A stretch of DNA of 64,000 bases. It comes from a virus. Its lineage: Duplodnaviria; Caudoviricetes. Location of the stretch: IMG/VR virus record IMGVR_UViG_3300046786_000888, positions 14,106 through 78,105 of that record, one strand, 5' to 3'. The position numbers were made by a program, and so were the translations under genes. This document shows, one piece after another, positions 24,592-59,786 of this stretch (positions are counted from its first letter, which is position 1; the number at the start of each line of letters is the position of its first letter). The notes beneath the pieces were generated by a model. It had not been told where the DNA came from and did no database searches. It saw only the letters and a list, made by a program, of their open reading frames with translations.

Positions 24592-25586
24592 CCTAAAATG
24601 CTTTAATAAGCACCGCAAGGCTCTTTATCCTTGCGTAACATCAACTTAAGGACGTTGATGAGCAGACTATATCATCACCCACAGCGGGTAAATCCCCTGT
24701 TTGGGTGCTCCGCGCTCGTGTCACCTTATCGGCTTCTACAACAAACTTGTTGCGGTCAGCCTCGCTCCACTTTGACTTACCTCGATTGGTTCGAGTGTCA
24801 TAGCGAAGGTCAAATTTGTATTGCATAGCTTTACATCCGTAAGGTTTTAAAACCTCTACAAATTGCCTGGCTGATGTTCCGTTAGCTCGAAGATTCCACA
24901 GGTTGGGATTTTTCTTTGCCATCGGAACACGAGGAACTAAGGAAGCTCCTGTCAGGCTCTCTATCCAATCCGAAACAACCAAAGCTGTATCGTAAGGGAT
25001 ATATAAAGCTAGCTCAACAATGCGTTCCCGAATGTAGGGATCTCCCGTACGCGTGGACGTACCGCGCTTACGTAGGTGAAGGTTTCCGTCATCCATGTAA
25101 AGGAGGGCTAAACCTTCTAACCCTATATCTCTAAGGAAAGAAGCTGTAAATTCTTTCTTCCCGCGAGGGTAGAGCTCTCTATAAATCGGTAATAGCAGCT
25201 CTTGCTGATTAGACCACCACTGACAAGCAGGAAAACTTCCCGTTTGGCAGTCGGCTTCTCTTTCCTTAATAGGCTGTTTTATGCCGAAAATACGATTGAG
25301 TCTTCCAACTTTCCAGCGGAGAAACTCAAATTGTTTTTGAGCATGAGTGATGTGAAGGCTAGGGTAGGTCGTGACCTGCCTCAGACAACCATCGCCCAAA
25401 CAGACCCCTTTAAGAAAGGAGCGGTCGCTTCGAGAGAGCATTTGAACAGTGTTAGTCGTTGAACCTTCCAGTCATTTCTGGCTGGCTTGGCTGCTGATTA
25501 GCCTCCCTTTCGGGTCCGGCTTTCCAGCAATTCACGGAGTTTAACCGATAGGCTTTCACCTAAAGGGACTCTAGACACATAGGTCC
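24592..25586 (-). mobile_element. Group I self-splicing intron (995 nt) in the major capsid gene
   Basis: P1 exon GACUU pairs with IGS GAGUC (U-G at the splice site); P10 CUA/UAG; P GAAUUGCUGGAAA, Q AAUCAGCAGCC, R GUUCAACGACUA, S GAUGAUAUAGUC; P3 CUCCGUG/CGCGGAG; P8 and P9 stems; terminal G; removal restores the frame GAC-TT|T-AGC. Confidence 0.93.
24641..25441 (-). CDS. Intron-encoded double-motif LAGLIDADG homing endonuclease
   Basis: 'FLKGVCLGDGCL' and 'GLALLYMDDGNL' motifs, 266 aa. Confidence 0.9.
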   Translation of the reverse strand: MLSRSDRSFLKGVCLGDGCLRQVTTYPSLHITHAQKQFEFLRWKVGRLNRIFGIKQPIKEREADCQTGSFPACQWWSNQQELLLPIYRELYPRGKKEFTASFLRDIGLEGLALLYMDDGNLHLRKRGTSTRTGDPYIRERIVELALYIPYDTALVVSDWIESLTGASLVPRVPMAKKNPNLWNLRANGTSARQFVEVLKPYGCKAMQYKFDLRYDTRTNRGKSKWSEADRNKFVVEADKVTRARSTQTGDLPAVGDDIVCSSTSLS

Positions 25587-44533: not shown

Positions 44534-45151
44534 GTGCCGCACAGTCTAGACCCAAAGTACAACATTCACAATGACTGGGTGCGCAATCTGGTCTCCGCGT
44601 GGGAACTCGCTAGCTCGGAGCCTAAAGCACCAGAACTTCACTTTAATCCACTCGACCAACGAATTATCGTCGAAATTGGAATTTATGAGGGAGCCTCAAC
44701 AGTTTGGTTCTCCGACAACCTGCTTGAGCACCCCGACAGCAGACTGATCAGTATCGACCCGTTCACCGGCTCTGAGGAGATGATCCGGGATCCCCAGCAG
44801 CATCCCACGCTGTCCCAGATCGAATTCACAGCCCGATCCAACGTCGCCAAGTCCAAGCACCCCGGCAAGGTCCGCATTGAAAAGGGCTGCTCGTGGGACC
44901 TCTACCCGAACCTCAAGGCCGAGTTCACACAAGGCATCGACATCCTGTACATCGACGGTGCGCACGATAGCACCTCCGTCATGCGCGACATCGCCCTGTA
45001 TGCGCCCCATGTCAAATCAGGCGGTGCCATCCTATTCGACGACTACGGCGCTGAGTCTGTGCGCGTTTCCGTAGATGCCGCCGTCAACTCCTTCCTCTCC
45101 CTTGAAAAGGGTGTACTGTGTCCGTGGCAGCTCTGGACCGTCAAAAAGTGA
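44534..45151 (+). CDS. Class I SAM methyltransferase (Methyltransf_24-like)
   Basis: 'IVEIGIYEGAST', 'DILYIDGAHD', 'GGAILFDDY'; GTG start inferred. Confidence 0.88.
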   Translation: MPHSLDPKYNIHNDWVRNLVSAWELASSEPKAPELHFNPLDQRIIVEIGIYEGASTVWFSDNLLEHPDSRLISIDPFTGSEEMIRDPQQHPTLSQIEFTARSNVAKSKHPGKVRIEKGCSWDLYPNLKAEFTQGIDILYIDGAHDSTSVMRDIALYAPHVKSGGAILFDDYGAESVRVSVDAAVNSFLSLEKGVLCPWQLWTVKK

Positions 45152-52915: not shown

Positions 52916-52951
52916 GGCTAAAGATTCTTTAGCTTACTTTAAACGAATTTC

Positions 52952-53185
52952 GTGCTCCGTCTTAGCATATACAAGTACTCTGACCTCCCCTTCGTGGCAC
53001 GGGAGTGGAACACCCCTACTCGTGAGCCGTGGAACGGGGTAATCAAAACAGCATTAGACGCTGTTGATCGACACAACGCATTTTATTTCCAAACAAAGGA
53101 TCATAAACACCTAATTGCTGCTGAATTATTACGAAGTTACGTTAAATTCCTGAAAGATCTCCTTGTAGAGTCCGAAAAAGTTTGA
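52952..53185 (+). CDS. Hypothetical protein
   Basis: ORF followed by a terminator. Confidence 0.55.
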   Translation: MLRLSIYKYSDLPFVAREWNTPTREPWNGVIKTALDAVDRHNAFYFQTKDHKHLIAAELLRSYVKFLKDLLVESEKV

Positions 53186-53189
53186 GTCG

Positions 53190-53215
53190 TCGCCCCACGC
53201 GGGCGATTTTTTTTT
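53190..53215 (+). terminator. Rho-independent terminator
   Basis: TCGCCC-CACGC-GGGCGA followed by T9. Confidence 0.8.
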
Positions 53216-53596
53216 CGTTCAGGGCCTGTCCGTATACTGACACTAAACCTTTTGGCCCCGATTTTCCCGCAAGATTTACAAAGGGTTCTCGCCGGCGGCG
53301 ACGTCAAACGCACACAATTAAAAAAAAGGGGCAGGTTGCGTACAGACGCGCGGGTGCGGGGGAGCTGAGTTTGTATAACGAATCAAATAGCAATCGTTAT
53401 GTATTACAAACTCCTACTCTTGTTCTATTCTTTTTACTGAGCGGGGGAGGATACCCCTTTAACTAAAGAGAATTCAGATCGTGAAGCCGCTTGACTAAAG
53501 GGCAGACGTGGTGCTAGCGCGTGCGCCCGCGCGCTTTCCTTTAGCTAGCTAGCTGACTGTGCTCTGTGTGCTTTTGCTGACCGCACGCTTAGGGGG

Positions 53597-53626
53597 TTGA
53601 CGGGATGCGCTGATGGGGGCTACCTT
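53597..53626 (+). promoter_or_regulatory. Sigma70-type promoter in front of the large structured RNA
   Basis: TTGACG-N18-TACCTT, preceded by TAGGGGG like the 8.4/8.6-kb promoters; predicted +1 at about 53633 coincides with the first stem. Confidence 0.6.
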
Positions 53627-53632
53627 TAGGTC

Positions 53633-54410
53633 ACTGGAGGAACGGGGCGAGAGCCACGCCGCCAGGGCACCTAGACAACTGAATCAACTCTCGCGACGGC
53701 CGAACTGGCCCCGCGCGTCTGCCGCTGATGGTAGGGAGCACTTCCCCGAAGTGTAGGCAAGGGCAGGCAAGGTGTGCCGGAACGAGTGCGGCGAGAGTTG
53801 TAGTAGGTAACTAGGTGAAAGAACCTTGGTAATTGAATAGTGGAACAAGCACCGACACGGTGAGGGTAGGCGAACTAGCGCCGCACCGTGCACGGCCTTG
53901 ATGCGGATTGCGCCGATGGGGTGCGCAATAGCCAGACGGCGGCGGCCGGACTGAAATTAACGCGAGCAGTGGCAGGCTCACCGTTCCACAATGTCAGGCT
54001 GTGCTTTGTCAGCTGGCACCTTTAACTAGGTGAACAGTTAATGACAAGAACAGTTGTTGTAGTTGTTGTCAGCTAGTACCGCAAGGGAACGTACGGATGA
54101 CACAGCTTAGCCCACCAGACTCCAGCTACGGTGCAGTGCTAAGTGCCAGACCTTTAAGGTCACAGCGTGGGTATAAGGGTAGGAGATCCCCCACTAGAGA
54201 GTAATGAAGCCCAGACAATAACTACAACAACGTAACTAGAACTATACGGGCGGCGCTGAGCTTCCAGCGCCATAAGTGTGATCAAAGCCGAGCAGTAAGA
54301 CTGCGAAAGGTATAGGTCTCTACCTAAGTGTGTAGCACAGCTAAATGGTTTAGCTAAGTTGCACACACCTAACATGACGAATAGCCCGTGGCACGCAGTT
54401 AGTTACAGCT
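53633..54410 (+). ncRNA. Large (~780 nt) ornate structured non-coding RNA; GOLLD-sized, family not confirmed
   Basis: No credible ORF; at least 12 helices, including 10-bp 53685-94/53791-800, 18-bp 54053-70/54214-31 and 7-bp 54232-38/54400-06; GNRA loops, an E-loop and a predicted pseudoknot. Confidence 0.8.
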
Positions 54411-54419
54411 TTGCACTTG

Positions 54420-54785
54420 TCACTTTGCAGGCTTTGTCTGTCTGGTGGAGAATTCCAAGTTGTACCCTTTACGATCCGCACTGTTCTTTAAGCGATGATC
54501 CTTGCACGAGAGAAGTTGTAAGTTCTCCAATGTGTGCAAGCCACCCTTAAATAGTGGGATCTTGTGGTCGACTTCGTATTCTTCACCTGATTGATTAAGT
54601 CTGTCTCGTTGACGATAGAGTAAGTTGACTTGCTCAATCTCGTCTAACGAGCTTAATTTAATCTGGTGACTATAACCCCGTACACAAACTTGATCTGCTG
54701 AGGGGCAAGCTTTCCTTATTTCATCCAGTGATGTAAGGATTTCAGGTTCCACGCGGGCGATTATGTCTTTGACGTAGTCGTTCAT
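54420..54785 (-). CDS. Small HNH endonuclease convergent on the ncRNA
   Basis: 'YEVDHKIPLFKGGLHTLENLQLL....HRLK'. Confidence 0.85.
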   Translation of the reverse strand: MNDYVKDIIARVEPEILTSLDEIRKACPSADQVCVRGYSHQIKLSSLDEIEQVNLLYRQRDRLNQSGEEYEVDHKIPLFKGGLHTLENLQLLSCKDHRLKNSADRKGYNLEFSTRQTKPAK

Positions 54786-54977
54786 TTAATGTTGCCGGGG
54801 GCCAGTAGTCTACCAGACTAAGAGAGCAGGGGCATTTTGTAAGCTGTAGCTAACTCAGTGCGTATATTTTAGTTTGGAGCAACAGTTCTGAACTGTATTA
54901 GGGCGGAGCCTGTTAACTACTAGCTTTGTCCAGGTTAAGTATTAAGTTTGATCCGATAGGATCATTCTTGATCACAG

Positions 54978-55036
54978 ACTGATTCTCTCCCCCAGCCACG
55001 GGTTAGGTGAGGGATTCTTCCCTCTTTGTTGTTAGC
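54978..55036 (+). repeat. ACTGATTCTCTCC / GAGGG-hairpin leader element, copy A
   Basis: ACTGATTCTCTCC-variable stem-TGAGGG.ATTCTT.CCCTC-TTTGTTGTTAGC. Confidence 0.65.
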
Positions 55037-55053
55037 TGCCAGCCGTGTAGCTG

Positions 55054-55380
55054 GTGAATGTTATGGACATCAAGACCAACAATCAGCCTCGTCAGCCTAT
55101 GTCAGGGCTGACCCTTTCTTTGTTTGTCGGTGACAAGCAAGCTGCCAAGATTCGCAAGCAGTTTGACTACTTAACTGACACTGAGTTTGAGGATGAATCA
55201 TTCATTATGTACAAAGGTTATGTGTACGCAATGTCTGACTTTATGCGTATCGAACAAGATTCTACTGGTGATCTTGCACAGTCTGGCTGGCACGGTTACA
55301 GCTCAGACTCATTCTTTAGCGGCGTGTTAATCAAACTGTGTGATGACGGCGATGTCATCCTTGGTCGCTACTGTTCCTGA
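55054..55380 (+). CDS. Early hypothetical protein
   Basis: 'WHGYSSDSFFSGVLI...D..V..GRY'. Confidence 0.65.
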   Translation: MNVMDIKTNNQPRQPMSGLTLSLFVGDKQAAKIRKQFDYLTDTEFEDESFIMYKGYVYAMSDFMRIEQDSTGDLAQSGWHGYSSDSFFSGVLIKLCDDGDVILGRYCS

Positions 55381-55666: not shown

Positions 55667-55869
55667 ACACTTTTACTCTCGCAACTGGCCGTCAAGTTGA
55701 GAAGAATGCTACGCACTGTGTGGCTGTTAAGACTCGCGGCCGCTGGAATCACCAGTGGTTCAAGTCTGACCGTGGCGCACAGAATGAGATCAAACGTCTG
55801 CGCAGTTATAGTGCAGACACTGTTGCGTACTACGACATTCAAGAGTTCAAGCTTATCCGTCCCGACTGA
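55663..55869 (+). CDS. Early hypothetical protein
   Basis: SD GGAGG plus GTG start overlapping the upstream stop. Confidence 0.55.
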   Translation: MNTFTLATGRQVEKNATHCVAVKTRGRWNHQWFKSDRGAQNEIKRLRSYSADTVAYYDIQEFKLIRPD

Positions 55870-59452: not shown

Positions 59453-59707
59453 ATGACAACAAACGAGCATATCTTTTATCAAGTGCCAGCACACTGGATA
59501 AACGCTTTGATAAAAGACGACCTAAGTATTTTCGAGGACAAGCCCTTAGATAGAAAAGCTTTCAGTAAATTCGTAACTAACTTCATCGAAGGGGGAACGA
59601 TTTTATCGGTTGGACAATCTCCTTACTTTAGCAAGCATCATGACGCTAGACCTTACGGAGTGTTACCGTGTGATGTAGTAGACGTTAAAGTCTCCTACAA
59701 TTACTGA
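59453..59707 (+). CDS. Early hypothetical protein
   Basis: 'Y.VPAHW..ALI.DD.S...PYFS..HDA..YGVLPCDV'. Confidence 0.6.
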   Translation: MTTNEHIFYQVPAHWINALIKDDLSIFEDKPLDRKAFSKFVTNFIEGGTILSVGQSPYFSKHHDARPYGVLPCDVVDVKVSYNY

Positions 59708-59712
59708 TTCTC

Positions 59713-59786
59713 GGGGGTCTAGCACTCTGGTTGAATGCCGCGTGCTCATAACACGCATAAGATGGGTTCGATTCCCATGGCCCCTA
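59713..59786 (+). tRNA. tRNA with CAU anticodon (elongator Met or lysidine-Ile2), no encoded CCA
   Basis: GGGGGTC/GGCCCCT acceptor, GCGTG-CTCATAA-CACGC anticodon arm, ATGGG-TTCGATT-CCCAT T-arm; lacks the initiator 3GC pairs. Confidence 0.92.

Follow-up and report, generated by a model that had tools for sequence, protein, structure and literature searches.

The locus at the late-early junction

The stretch of DNA analysed here (hereafter the window) comprises the last 64 kb of a 78,105-bp virus record of IMG/VR (IMGVR_UViG_3300046786_000888), which has a completeness rating of 97%. Its positions 53597-54410, on the plus strand, had been proposed in a preliminary description, made from the letters alone, to specify an ornate structured non-coding RNA with its own promoter. 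We find that this region belongs to a real and new family of large structured phage RNAs, longer and differently bounded than proposed: the conserved structure does not end at 54410 and reaches ~54950, past an HNH endonuclease gene. The best explanation is that 53597-54410 forms the first two-thirds of one long untranslated early transcript, whose length is ~1.3 kb in the window and, where relatives lack the HNH gene, 0.70-0.95 kb. The locus contains the following features.

53491-53535, plus strand: promoter-like site P1 with a putative function, TTGACT at 53491-96, an 18-nt spacer and TG-n-TAGCGC at ~53512-20
53597-53626, plus strand: promoter P2 of the RNA, -35 TTGACG (53597-53602), 18-nt spacer, -10 TACCTT (53621-53626)
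53634-53665, plus strand: first hairpin, in a boxB-like position, CUGGAGG/CCGCCAG stem, inner GGC-GAGA-GCC, GNRA tetraloop cap
53667-53678, plus strand: boxA-like element 1 (boxA-1), GCACCTAGACAA, which doubles as the 5' strand of helix P2 of M1
53668-53817, plus strand: conserved 5' domain M1, helices P2 (53668-74/53811-17), P2a (53678-80/53806-08), P4 (53685-94/53791-800) and P5 (53698-701/53707-10)
53821-53840, plus strand: boxA-like element 2 (boxA-2) with D4-like tail, GAACCTTGGTAATTGAATAG, boxA part GAACCTTGGTAA
53840-53989, plus strand: middle domain of the window type (M2w), outer helix 53840-46/53983-89 around several hairpins, among them 53856-62/53884-90 and 53907-13/53923-29
54005-54048, plus strand: hairpin M3 with conserved loop UUUAACUA
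54053-54231, plus strand: accessory domain M4, closed by an 18-bp helix (54053-70/54214-31)
54246-54389, plus strand: domain M5 of the window type, predicted closing helix 54246-51/54384-89 around four hairpins
54397-54411, plus strand: 5' strand of the long-range helix (P-LR), pairing with 54841-54855
54420-54785, minus strand: HNH endonuclease gene of 121 amino acids (aa); Pfam HNH, E 1.2e-6; PHROG endonuclease VII/HNH
54841-54855, plus strand: 3' strand of P-LR, pairing with 54397-54411; 15 bp, one G-U
54856-54947, plus strand: 3' domain G, UUUAGUUU, hairpin 54870-54895, then the GGGCGGAGCC region
54948-55062, plus strand: last part of the non-coding unit, with three GATC(A) boxes at 54948-54975 ahead of the three-hairpin leader G2, which starts from ACTGATTCTC at 54978

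Genes left of 52915 run leftward and encode terminase, portal-like, tail and lysis proteins together with an 850-aa protein without family; those from 55063 onward run rightward and are small, without assigned function. Over 98% of its length, the portal-like protein shares 41% identity with the portal of Synechococcus phage S-EIV1, a 79-kb phage of a polar freshwater Synechococcus and the sole portal match among 50,697 phage records. The DNA runs containing the stretch carry freshwater or lake metagenome labels. The S-EIV1-like portal, the gene directions and the freshwater runs therefore place the RNA in a 2.1-kb divergent junction of an S-EIV1-related phage, which is probably cyanobacterial and probably infects freshwater or estuarine picocyanobacteria. 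Much of the preliminary description holds: a cyanophage-like genome has, at its late/early junction, a large structured non-coding RNA behind a host-type promoter of its own. The suggestion of a GOLLD variant in that description does not hold. As it had stated, there is no credible protein, the region 52916-54420 being devoid of open reading frames (ORFs) of 100 aa or more. It had missed the continuation beyond the HNH gene, the modularity and the boxA-like elements flanking the 5' domain.

Homologous loci

Relatives were gathered by a neighbour-protein search, three exact-motif scans of IMG/VR and one scan of JGI/ENA metagenomes. The conserved 5' domain was found in 63 loci; 51 regions remained once contained ones were removed, with 43 non-identical 5' domains. 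The layout is constant in every locus: a small rightward ORF with an intrinsic terminator, P1, promoter P2, 700-950 nt free of ORFs, the three-hairpin leader and the first early ORF. A lack of covarying homologs had been named beforehand as an argument against the RNA; ~50 homologous loci with compensatory changes were obtained. An 18-mer also gave 22 hits in genomes of unrelated bacteria; none passed an nhmmer check, so that these hits are ascribed to chance and give no host clue.

Contigs of relatives are present in four RNA libraries from three studies. Such contigs are strandless, carry no end or abundance information and could stem from DNA carry-over, and they are weak evidence that the RNA may be expressed as an early transcript. 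Contig ends near 54410 are unusable as RNA ends, and the finding that three of the four RNA runs have no contig over the flanking genes is uninformative, as these are contigs from runs picked by the stretch itself.

A conserved and covarying 5' domain

The 814 nt of 53597-54410 fold at -311.9 kcal/mol, compared with a mean of -280.5 kcal/mol for shuffled controls (z = -5.09). None of 20 shuffles folded as well, and z was -2.16 for the minus strand. All nine pairs of complementary segments listed in the preliminary description are fully complementary; as described below, their support among relatives varies.

For M1, 31 distinct sequences were aligned over 53634-53817 and the structure was written from the fold of the window. 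Paired cells amounted to 88.3%, against 31-41% when the partners were slid, 13 pairs were changed on both sides, and the covariation score was reached by none of 500 shuffles. The CACCTAG/CTAGGTG and CAACTCTCGC/GCGAGAGTTG helices show compensatory changes among relatives and are the best supported of those proposed beforehand, with C-G and A-U alternating 18:12 at one pair and C-G and U-A 17:10 at another. Among 31 homologs, G-U cells in the helices of the 5' domain numbered 150 and A-C cells 53, so that the folded strand is the plus strand, on which the G-U wobbles had indeed been placed. Compensatory changes thus keep the helices, on one strand, as is generally the case for structured non-coding RNAs.

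Upstream, the first hairpin occurs with different stems (CCGGAGG/CCUCCGG, CUGAAGC/GCUUCGG) and loops (GAGA, GCGA, GCAA, GAAA). The MAFFT alignment is poor over this hairpin, and the covariation counts therefore understate its pairing. Inside M1, a 48-nt irregular hairpin (53719-53766) is almost invariant; it contains GCCGCYGAUGGUAGGGAG...CCCCGAARYGUAGGC, with fixed U-G and G-U pairs. A word (C/Y)GAUGG follows a hairpin twice in the family, as GCYGAUGGUAGGG in the 5' core (53719-53735) and as NCGAUGGCRG in the D6 domain that the HNH gene replaces. This repetition hints at a tertiary or protein-binding motif.

Exchangeable middle and accessory domains

Downstream of M1, whole helix-closed domains differ between relatives that are 80-97% identical in their shared parts. 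The middle domain exists in at least five unrelated versions, most relatives carrying one of at least four other than that of the window. M2w occurs in four distinct sequences; nine of its 46 predicted pairs show compensatory changes, and these cover all three helices proposed earlier (GTGGAAC/GTTCCAC, CACGGTG/CACCGTG and TTGCGC/GCGCAA). Similarly, the stem of M3, in the region of the proposed TTGTCA helix, covaries among relatives: it changes completely (CACCU/AGGUG, UUGUCUU/AAGACAA, GUUGCC/GGCAAC) with the loop UUUAACUA kept.

M4 is carried by only five distinct sequences and is precisely absent in others, for instance L030. In the five copies both sides are changed at three pairs of the 18-bp helix, which had been among those proposed, and at three inner pairs. 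The module UAGUACC-GCAA-GGGAAC (54074-54090), described beforehand as an E-loop/GNRA module, has the AGUA/GAA bulged-G (sarcin-ricin/loop E) signature and a GNRA cap, and is invariant in the five copies. One might speculate that this motif mimics the ribosomal sarcin-ricin loop. The pseudoknot that had been drawn between CTGGCAC and GTGCCAG received no compensatory support: one of the five carriers has TTAATAC without a compensating change, and the 5' element CTGGCAC is kept in many loci without the partner domain.

Of M5 of the window type, only one other distinct copy exists (L030, ~97% identical); between the two, a single A-to-G change gives a G-U pair on the plus strand. At this position most relatives (e.g. 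L066:2280-2360, L019, L023) have instead a hairpin and an H-type pseudoknot, both stems of which covary: GACG/CGUC with GGCG/CGCC, and GCAACC/GGUUGC with GCCACG/CGUGGC or ACGGU/ACCGU with GUGGU/ACCAC. Neither M4 nor any other module turned up at a second site, as judged from the genome and the loci fetched.

A long-range helix interrupted by an HNH gene

P-LR joins the end of the previously described region to sequences beyond the HNH gene. It appears in the unconstrained minimum free energy structure of 53633-54962 despite an insert of 390 nt between its strands, with an RNAduplex energy of -24.1 kcal/mol. In 28 distinct relatives, 92% of it is paired, 6 of 15 core pairs are changed on both sides, the strands lie 138-153 nt apart and the helix extends to 20-25 bp. 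The segment TAGTTAC (54400-06) belongs to P-LR, which is far better conserved than its proposed pairing with GTAACTA (54232-38): the 5' strand of the latter is missing in most relatives and the 3' strand is always kept.

The HNH insert block (~54439-54829) lies inside the domain enclosed by P-LR. The gene is absent from all relatives but one, and takes the place of ~110 nt retained in the others, namely a long hairpin (GUCCAG...CUGGAC) and a module made of a hairpin and CGAUGGC. In the exception (L107:640-1060), a homologous antisense HNH gene stands at the same place and replaces the same hairpin and CGAUGGC module. HNH genes in two lineages at one site suggest repeated homing into the RNA gene. 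Since the gene is lacking in most relatives and sits inside the P-LR domain, it is a selfish lineage-specific insertion and not a partner of the RNA, and the 3' end set earlier at 54410 is an artefact of this insertion. As with the homing genes found in loops of structured RNAs such as phage group I introns, a small HNH gene occupies a terminal domain enclosed by a conserved helix, here in two lineages at one site and lacking in the rest. Unlike in those cases, the gene is antisense, ~110 nt of RNA are replaced rather than a loop being added to, and the host RNA is no intron.

Beyond P-LR, domain G is 80-96% identical among relatives. Its inner stem covaries (CGGG/CCCG, CAGG/CCUG, GAGC/GCUC), and its consensus fold is weak apart from this inner hairpin. 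Leader G2, which includes GAGGGATTCTTCCCTC and then TTTGTTGTT, extends to the start codon (ATG, 55063) of the first early ORF. It is conserved in ~30 relatives, its first and third hairpins covary, and it is terminator-like (hairpin plus U-run) in the terminator scan.

ACTGATTCTC recurs at 55865, again at the head of an early-gene leader, and at 59703-59712, where it abuts the 5' end of a transfer RNA (tRNA) gene, tRNA-Met; its positions suggest a shared processing or start signal. The GATC(A) boxes are ~11 nt apart, also in ~30 related loci, with TAGATT at a -10-like distance in most relatives and CTGATT in the window. They could constitute a methylation- or protein-controlled promoter of the early genes.

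Promoters upstream of the RNA

P1 and promoter P2 lie ~106 bp apart and are both read as promoters of the host sigma-70 type. The promoter that had been claimed for the RNA is present in full, with its two hexamers and the 18-nt spacer, and recurs in nearly all of ~45 relatives: TTGAC is invariant, the length of the spacer is fixed and its sequence free, and in the -10 element only A2 and T6 are conserved (TACCTT, GATCTT, CATGCT, GATATT and others). From this signature we infer a real promoter, with a start at ~53630-53634, although a consensus scanner did not call promoter P2. In P1, TTGAC and TGnTA are conserved in ~40 relatives with a variable spacer; directly 3' of it stands a GC-rich alternating purine-pyrimidine hairpin (53516-53535), followed by TTTCC and listed by the terminator scan.

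Two further candidates were rejected. TTGACA inside GAACCTTGACAA was considered as a third promoter and has no -10 element conserved at the right distance. A 4-bp pairing of AGGU (53628-31) with ACCU (53823-26) is inconsistent among relatives and may lie upstream of the transcription start.

The tract after P1, made of GC/GT or (CG/TG)n, is Z-DNA-prone and hairpin-forming, and its length ranges from ~18 to >40 nt among relatives (L078, L070, L109). Some relatives have a weaker boxA-like sequence, GAACCCUGACA, 3' of this tract. Both promoters are preceded by a small rightward ORF (52952-53215, plus strand; 77 aa, without family) with a strong intrinsic terminator 3' of it (GTCGCCC...GGGCGAT plus T9). 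This pair is syntenic with a small ORF and terminator of S-EIV1 at 44706-44918; the S-EIV1 gap of ~0.65 kb at the corresponding place contains neither a homologous RNA nor a boxA.

boxA-like elements flanking the 5' domain

In the 16S-23S spacer of all marine and some freshwater picocyanobacteria, boxA reads GAACCTTGACAACTGCATAG, the reverse complement of a primer (PMC9769826), and the general cyanobacterial boxA and D4 are GAACCTTGAAAA and CTGCATA (PMC8461337). At boxA-2, immediately 3' of M1, GAACCTTGACAA is present in most relatives, frequently with CTGAATAG or CAGAATAG coming next; at least 17 loci match this family consensus, GAACCTTGACAA, without a mismatch. Within 4 mismatches in 20 of the picocyanobacterial boxA plus D4, GAACCTTGACAACTGCATAG, a reference taken from papers and not from the actual host genome, lie 30 of 48 loci. 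The boxA-1 position is occupied in relatives by GAACCTTGAAAA, GAACCTAGACAA or GAACCTTGAGAA. The window's own copies match at 10/12 and 10/12 positions, and 16/20 with D4; they are weaker, matches of this quality are not rare by chance, and the case for boxA therefore rests on the relatives.

As to position, boxA-1 lies ~35-45 nt from the predicted start, straight after the covarying GNRA-capped hairpin, and boxA-2 ~190 nt from it. The arrangement is that of a boxA leader of the ribosomal RNA (rRNA) operon type, near a host-type promoter and adjoining a boxB-like hairpin. A 5' domain flanked by boxA-like elements of the host rRNA type points to Nus-factor antitermination and a role as early-operon leader, not solely to a free-standing RNA.

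Comparison with known RNA families

An Rfam scan of the whole window at gathering threshold returned tRNA only. With Rfam 15 at E <= 10, the region 53300-54700 gave two chance matches (a small nucleolar RNA (snoRNA) and a hepatitis C virus element) and no large-RNA family, and 12 homologous loci gave nothing relevant at E <= 1, low-complexity microRNA/snoRNA matches being restricted to the upstream part. The covariance model of GOLLD (RF02032), a family marked by a conserved 3' half with pseudoknots and E-loops, matched nowhere at E <= 10 along the 78-kb record. Neither did that of ROOL (RF03087), for which control genomes gave no match either, so that this result is that of the model search alone. 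The group I intron model (RF00028) found nothing in the region. GOLLD often adjoins or includes tRNA genes; here, 37 related loci have none within the RNA, and the nearest in the window is tRNA-Met (CAT) ~5 kb downstream. The absence of any Rfam 15 match, including GOLLD, ROOL and the group I intron, makes this a new family and not a GOLLD variant. Of the two alternatives offered beforehand, a GOLLD variant or a new giant RNA class, the second is thus the one retained.

The 50,697 phage records contained no match to the region (blastn) or to the neighbouring 850-aa protein (tblastn), and Pfam and PHROG searches of the neighbouring small proteins revealed no RNA-binding or regulatory family. 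Resemblances to a hammerhead core (CUGAUGA...GAAA), a kink-turn, 4.5S RNA and a glutamine riboswitch were discarded, as the Rfam models gave nothing. No published description of the RNA was found; pieces of it may be among the thousands of short unnamed motifs, with a mean of 67 nt, of a 2023 intergenic survey of IMG/VR (PMC10690425).

A proposed early unit resembling an rRNA operon

We slightly favour, at somewhat better than even chances, a reading of the locus as an early unit resembling an rRNA operon. Host RNA polymerase would start at promoter P2, and host NusB/NusE(S10), with NusA/NusG, would load on boxA as on rRNA transcripts. The polymerase would become fast and termination-resistant, so that the long, untranslated and hairpin-rich RNA could be completed and folded, and transcription would continue across the hairpin-plus-U elements into the early genes. 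The long stalk P-LR is a plausible RNase III-type processing site, which could release the RNA body. The unit reads, in order, two promoters, a GNRA hairpin, boxA-1, a pseudo-symmetric 5' domain, a single-stranded boxA-2 with D4, helix-closed domains, the stalk and the early-gene leader. Nus loading is the likeliest mechanism because the tandem promoters, the hairpin with boxA, the long folded RNA, the stalk and the hairpin-U elements copy the logic of an rRNA operon. In addition, one and the same conserved early-gene leader bounds the non-coding span downstream in every case, and the terminator scan found no canonical terminator between the RNA and that leader.

The likeness to the cyanobacterial rRNA spacer (boxB, boxA and D4 in the Iteman nomenclature, with the Nus rrn complex) includes a hairpin followed by boxA, host-type promoters and a long untranslated folded RNA. 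Long-range stalks flank internal domains in both, and GAACCUUGACAA plus CUGAAUAG, the consensus of the family, nearly coincides with the spacer sequence of picocyanobacteria (PMC9769826, PMC8461337). In contrast to that operon, the unit described here is phage-encoded, its RNA body has no rRNA similarity (no Rfam rRNA match) and it runs into protein-coding early genes. Moreover, two boxA copies flank one domain, the first of them in a helix, and binding of NusB/NusE is predicted from the sequence.

Among phages, the lambda nut sites are the counterpart in antitermination. In coliphage T7, a boxA antiterminator downstream of the host-dependent early promoters A0-A3 is mentioned in PMC3709561 (citing Savalia 2010). 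As far as that account goes, host boxA is borrowed there, as would be the case here, directly behind early promoters for host RNA polymerase, and early transcription resists termination (PMC3709561). The leaders of these phages are short, unlike the 0.7-1.3 kb of conserved structured RNA of this family, for which no N-like protein was identified and whose host is probably a cyanobacterium.

Several observations speak against this reading. Matches of 10/12 to boxA are common by chance, with 17 sites in the window, and the reference host boxA comes from two papers rather than from the genome of the actual host. As one strand of a covarying helix, boxA-1 may be conserved for structural reasons. 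The conserved tertiary-looking structure (pseudoknots of relatives, invariant 60-nt cores, GNRA loops) goes far beyond the needs of any known antitermination leader. Finally, rightward transcription would collide with the HNH gene, which lies antisense within the unit.

Alternative explanations

One alternative is a free-standing, trans-acting ornate RNA of a new class akin to GOLLD and ROOL. Its body would be the product and not a leader, with a job of its own such as assembly or scaffolding, host-factor capture or the display of swappable decoy domains; boxA and the tandem promoters would serve quantity only. This is an uncertain reading that we consider rather improbable. It agrees with the at least 12 covariation-supported helices, the invariant 60-nt core, the GNRA loops, the loop-E/sarcin-ricin-like module and the H-type pseudoknots of relatives, and with an exchange of whole domains between relatives 80-97% identical, as in fast-evolving accessory loci. 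The 15-25 bp stalk could be a processing site, and the downstream genes have their own repeated leader. However, no terminator and no mapped 3' end was found, accumulation as a discrete species is without support, no partner protein was identified (the neighbouring small ORFs having no informative family in Pfam or PHROG) and the unit always adjoins the first early gene. Like GOLLD and ROOL, the RNA is phage-borne, of lake origin and 0.6-0.8 kb or more in length; it has numerous helices that are long-range or pseudoknotted, motifs of the GNRA and E-loop-like kinds, peripheral domains that vary and a function not established (PMC12286853, PMC5737381). Unlike them, it has no covariance-model match, does not lie beside tRNAs, has boxA at its 5' side and holds a fixed place heading the early operon.

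The free-standing and leader readings overlap and are not mutually exclusive. A bolder form, which we regard as doubtful, makes the folded body the product: the machinery by which the host makes rRNA (tandem promoters, the boxA/Nus complex and a long processing stalk) would mass-produce, in the first minutes of infection, an RNA machine or scaffold of ~1 kb and of a new class, whose interchangeable peripheral domains, e.g. M4 with its likeness to the sarcin-ricin loop, would be decoys or platforms for host factors or defence nucleases. The rRNA-operon-like mechanism of expression is testable, and an independent function of the RNA body is a serious possibility.

The modularity could also reflect a string of independent small elements (hairpin cassettes, insertions resembling miniature inverted-repeat transposable elements, or separate small RNAs) lying side by side in a recombination-prone intergenic region. 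M2, M4 and M5 each have a closing helix of their own, and each occurs, is lacking or gives way to another domain independently of the others; the inverted ends of M4 measure 18 bp and are flanked by AGAAC repeats, and the short words UAACUA and YUUGUC recur. We hold this to be very unlikely: the parts are joined by P-LR, which covaries, and follow one another in a fixed order, the modules occur at this locus only, as judged from the genome and the fetched loci, and a conserved promoter stands before the first domain only.

Still less credible is an element acting as DNA, such as an origin of replication, a site for packaging or an array of operators, with inverted repeats that only mimic RNA structure. 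Its place at the divergent junction of late and early blocks would suit such an element, the GTCCAG...CTGGAC palindrome of relatives and the GATC boxes (54948-75) recall protein-binding DNA, and a Z-DNA-prone (CG/TG)n tract stands after P1. On the plus strand, though, G-U is tolerated three times more often than A-C, the core has invariant U-G and G-U pairs, relatives have pseudoknots, the folding excess is strand-asymmetric and helices with strands 140-450 nt apart covary.

A divergent GOLLD, ROOL, HEARO, OLE or group I/II intron carrying the HNH gene is the most improbable of all, in spite of the GOLLD-like size and lake origin, the HNH gene in a loop of the structure as in group I introns and a partial group I intron match elsewhere in the genome, since no Rfam model of these families matched at E <= 10 (region and genome) or at E <= 1 (12 relatives), there are no flanking exons and the promoter lies a few bases 5' of the structure, the HNH gene is antisense and missing from almost all relatives, and no tRNA lies in or adjoins the RNA in 37 loci.

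Implications

Very few classes of large structured RNA are known from bacteria or phages, most of them with a function still unsolved. With dozens of natural variants and rich covariation, the structure of this family can now be modelled, and its predicted expression logic, a host promoter combined with a boxA of the host rRNA type, is clear. Domain swapping and repeated HNH invasion provide a natural experiment on the dispensable parts of a big RNA. If the boxA reading is true, cyanophages would hijack rRNA antitermination, as documented for T7 and lambda; nothing on such a hijack by cyanophages was found in the literature. The boxA match further offers a separate clue to the host of this freshwater phage lineage, which is uncultured and occurs worldwide: it points to picocyanobacteria of the Synechococcus/Prochlorococcus clade.

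Other features of the genome

Two minor elements lie outside the unit. The partial match to the group I intron model (RF00028), the only one in the genome, is at 25426-25534 on the minus strand, with 32.9 bits and E 3.9e-8, below the gathering score. The tRNA-Met (CAT) gene, which the Rfam scan at gathering threshold did not list, was located by ARAGORN at 59713-59786 on the plus strand.

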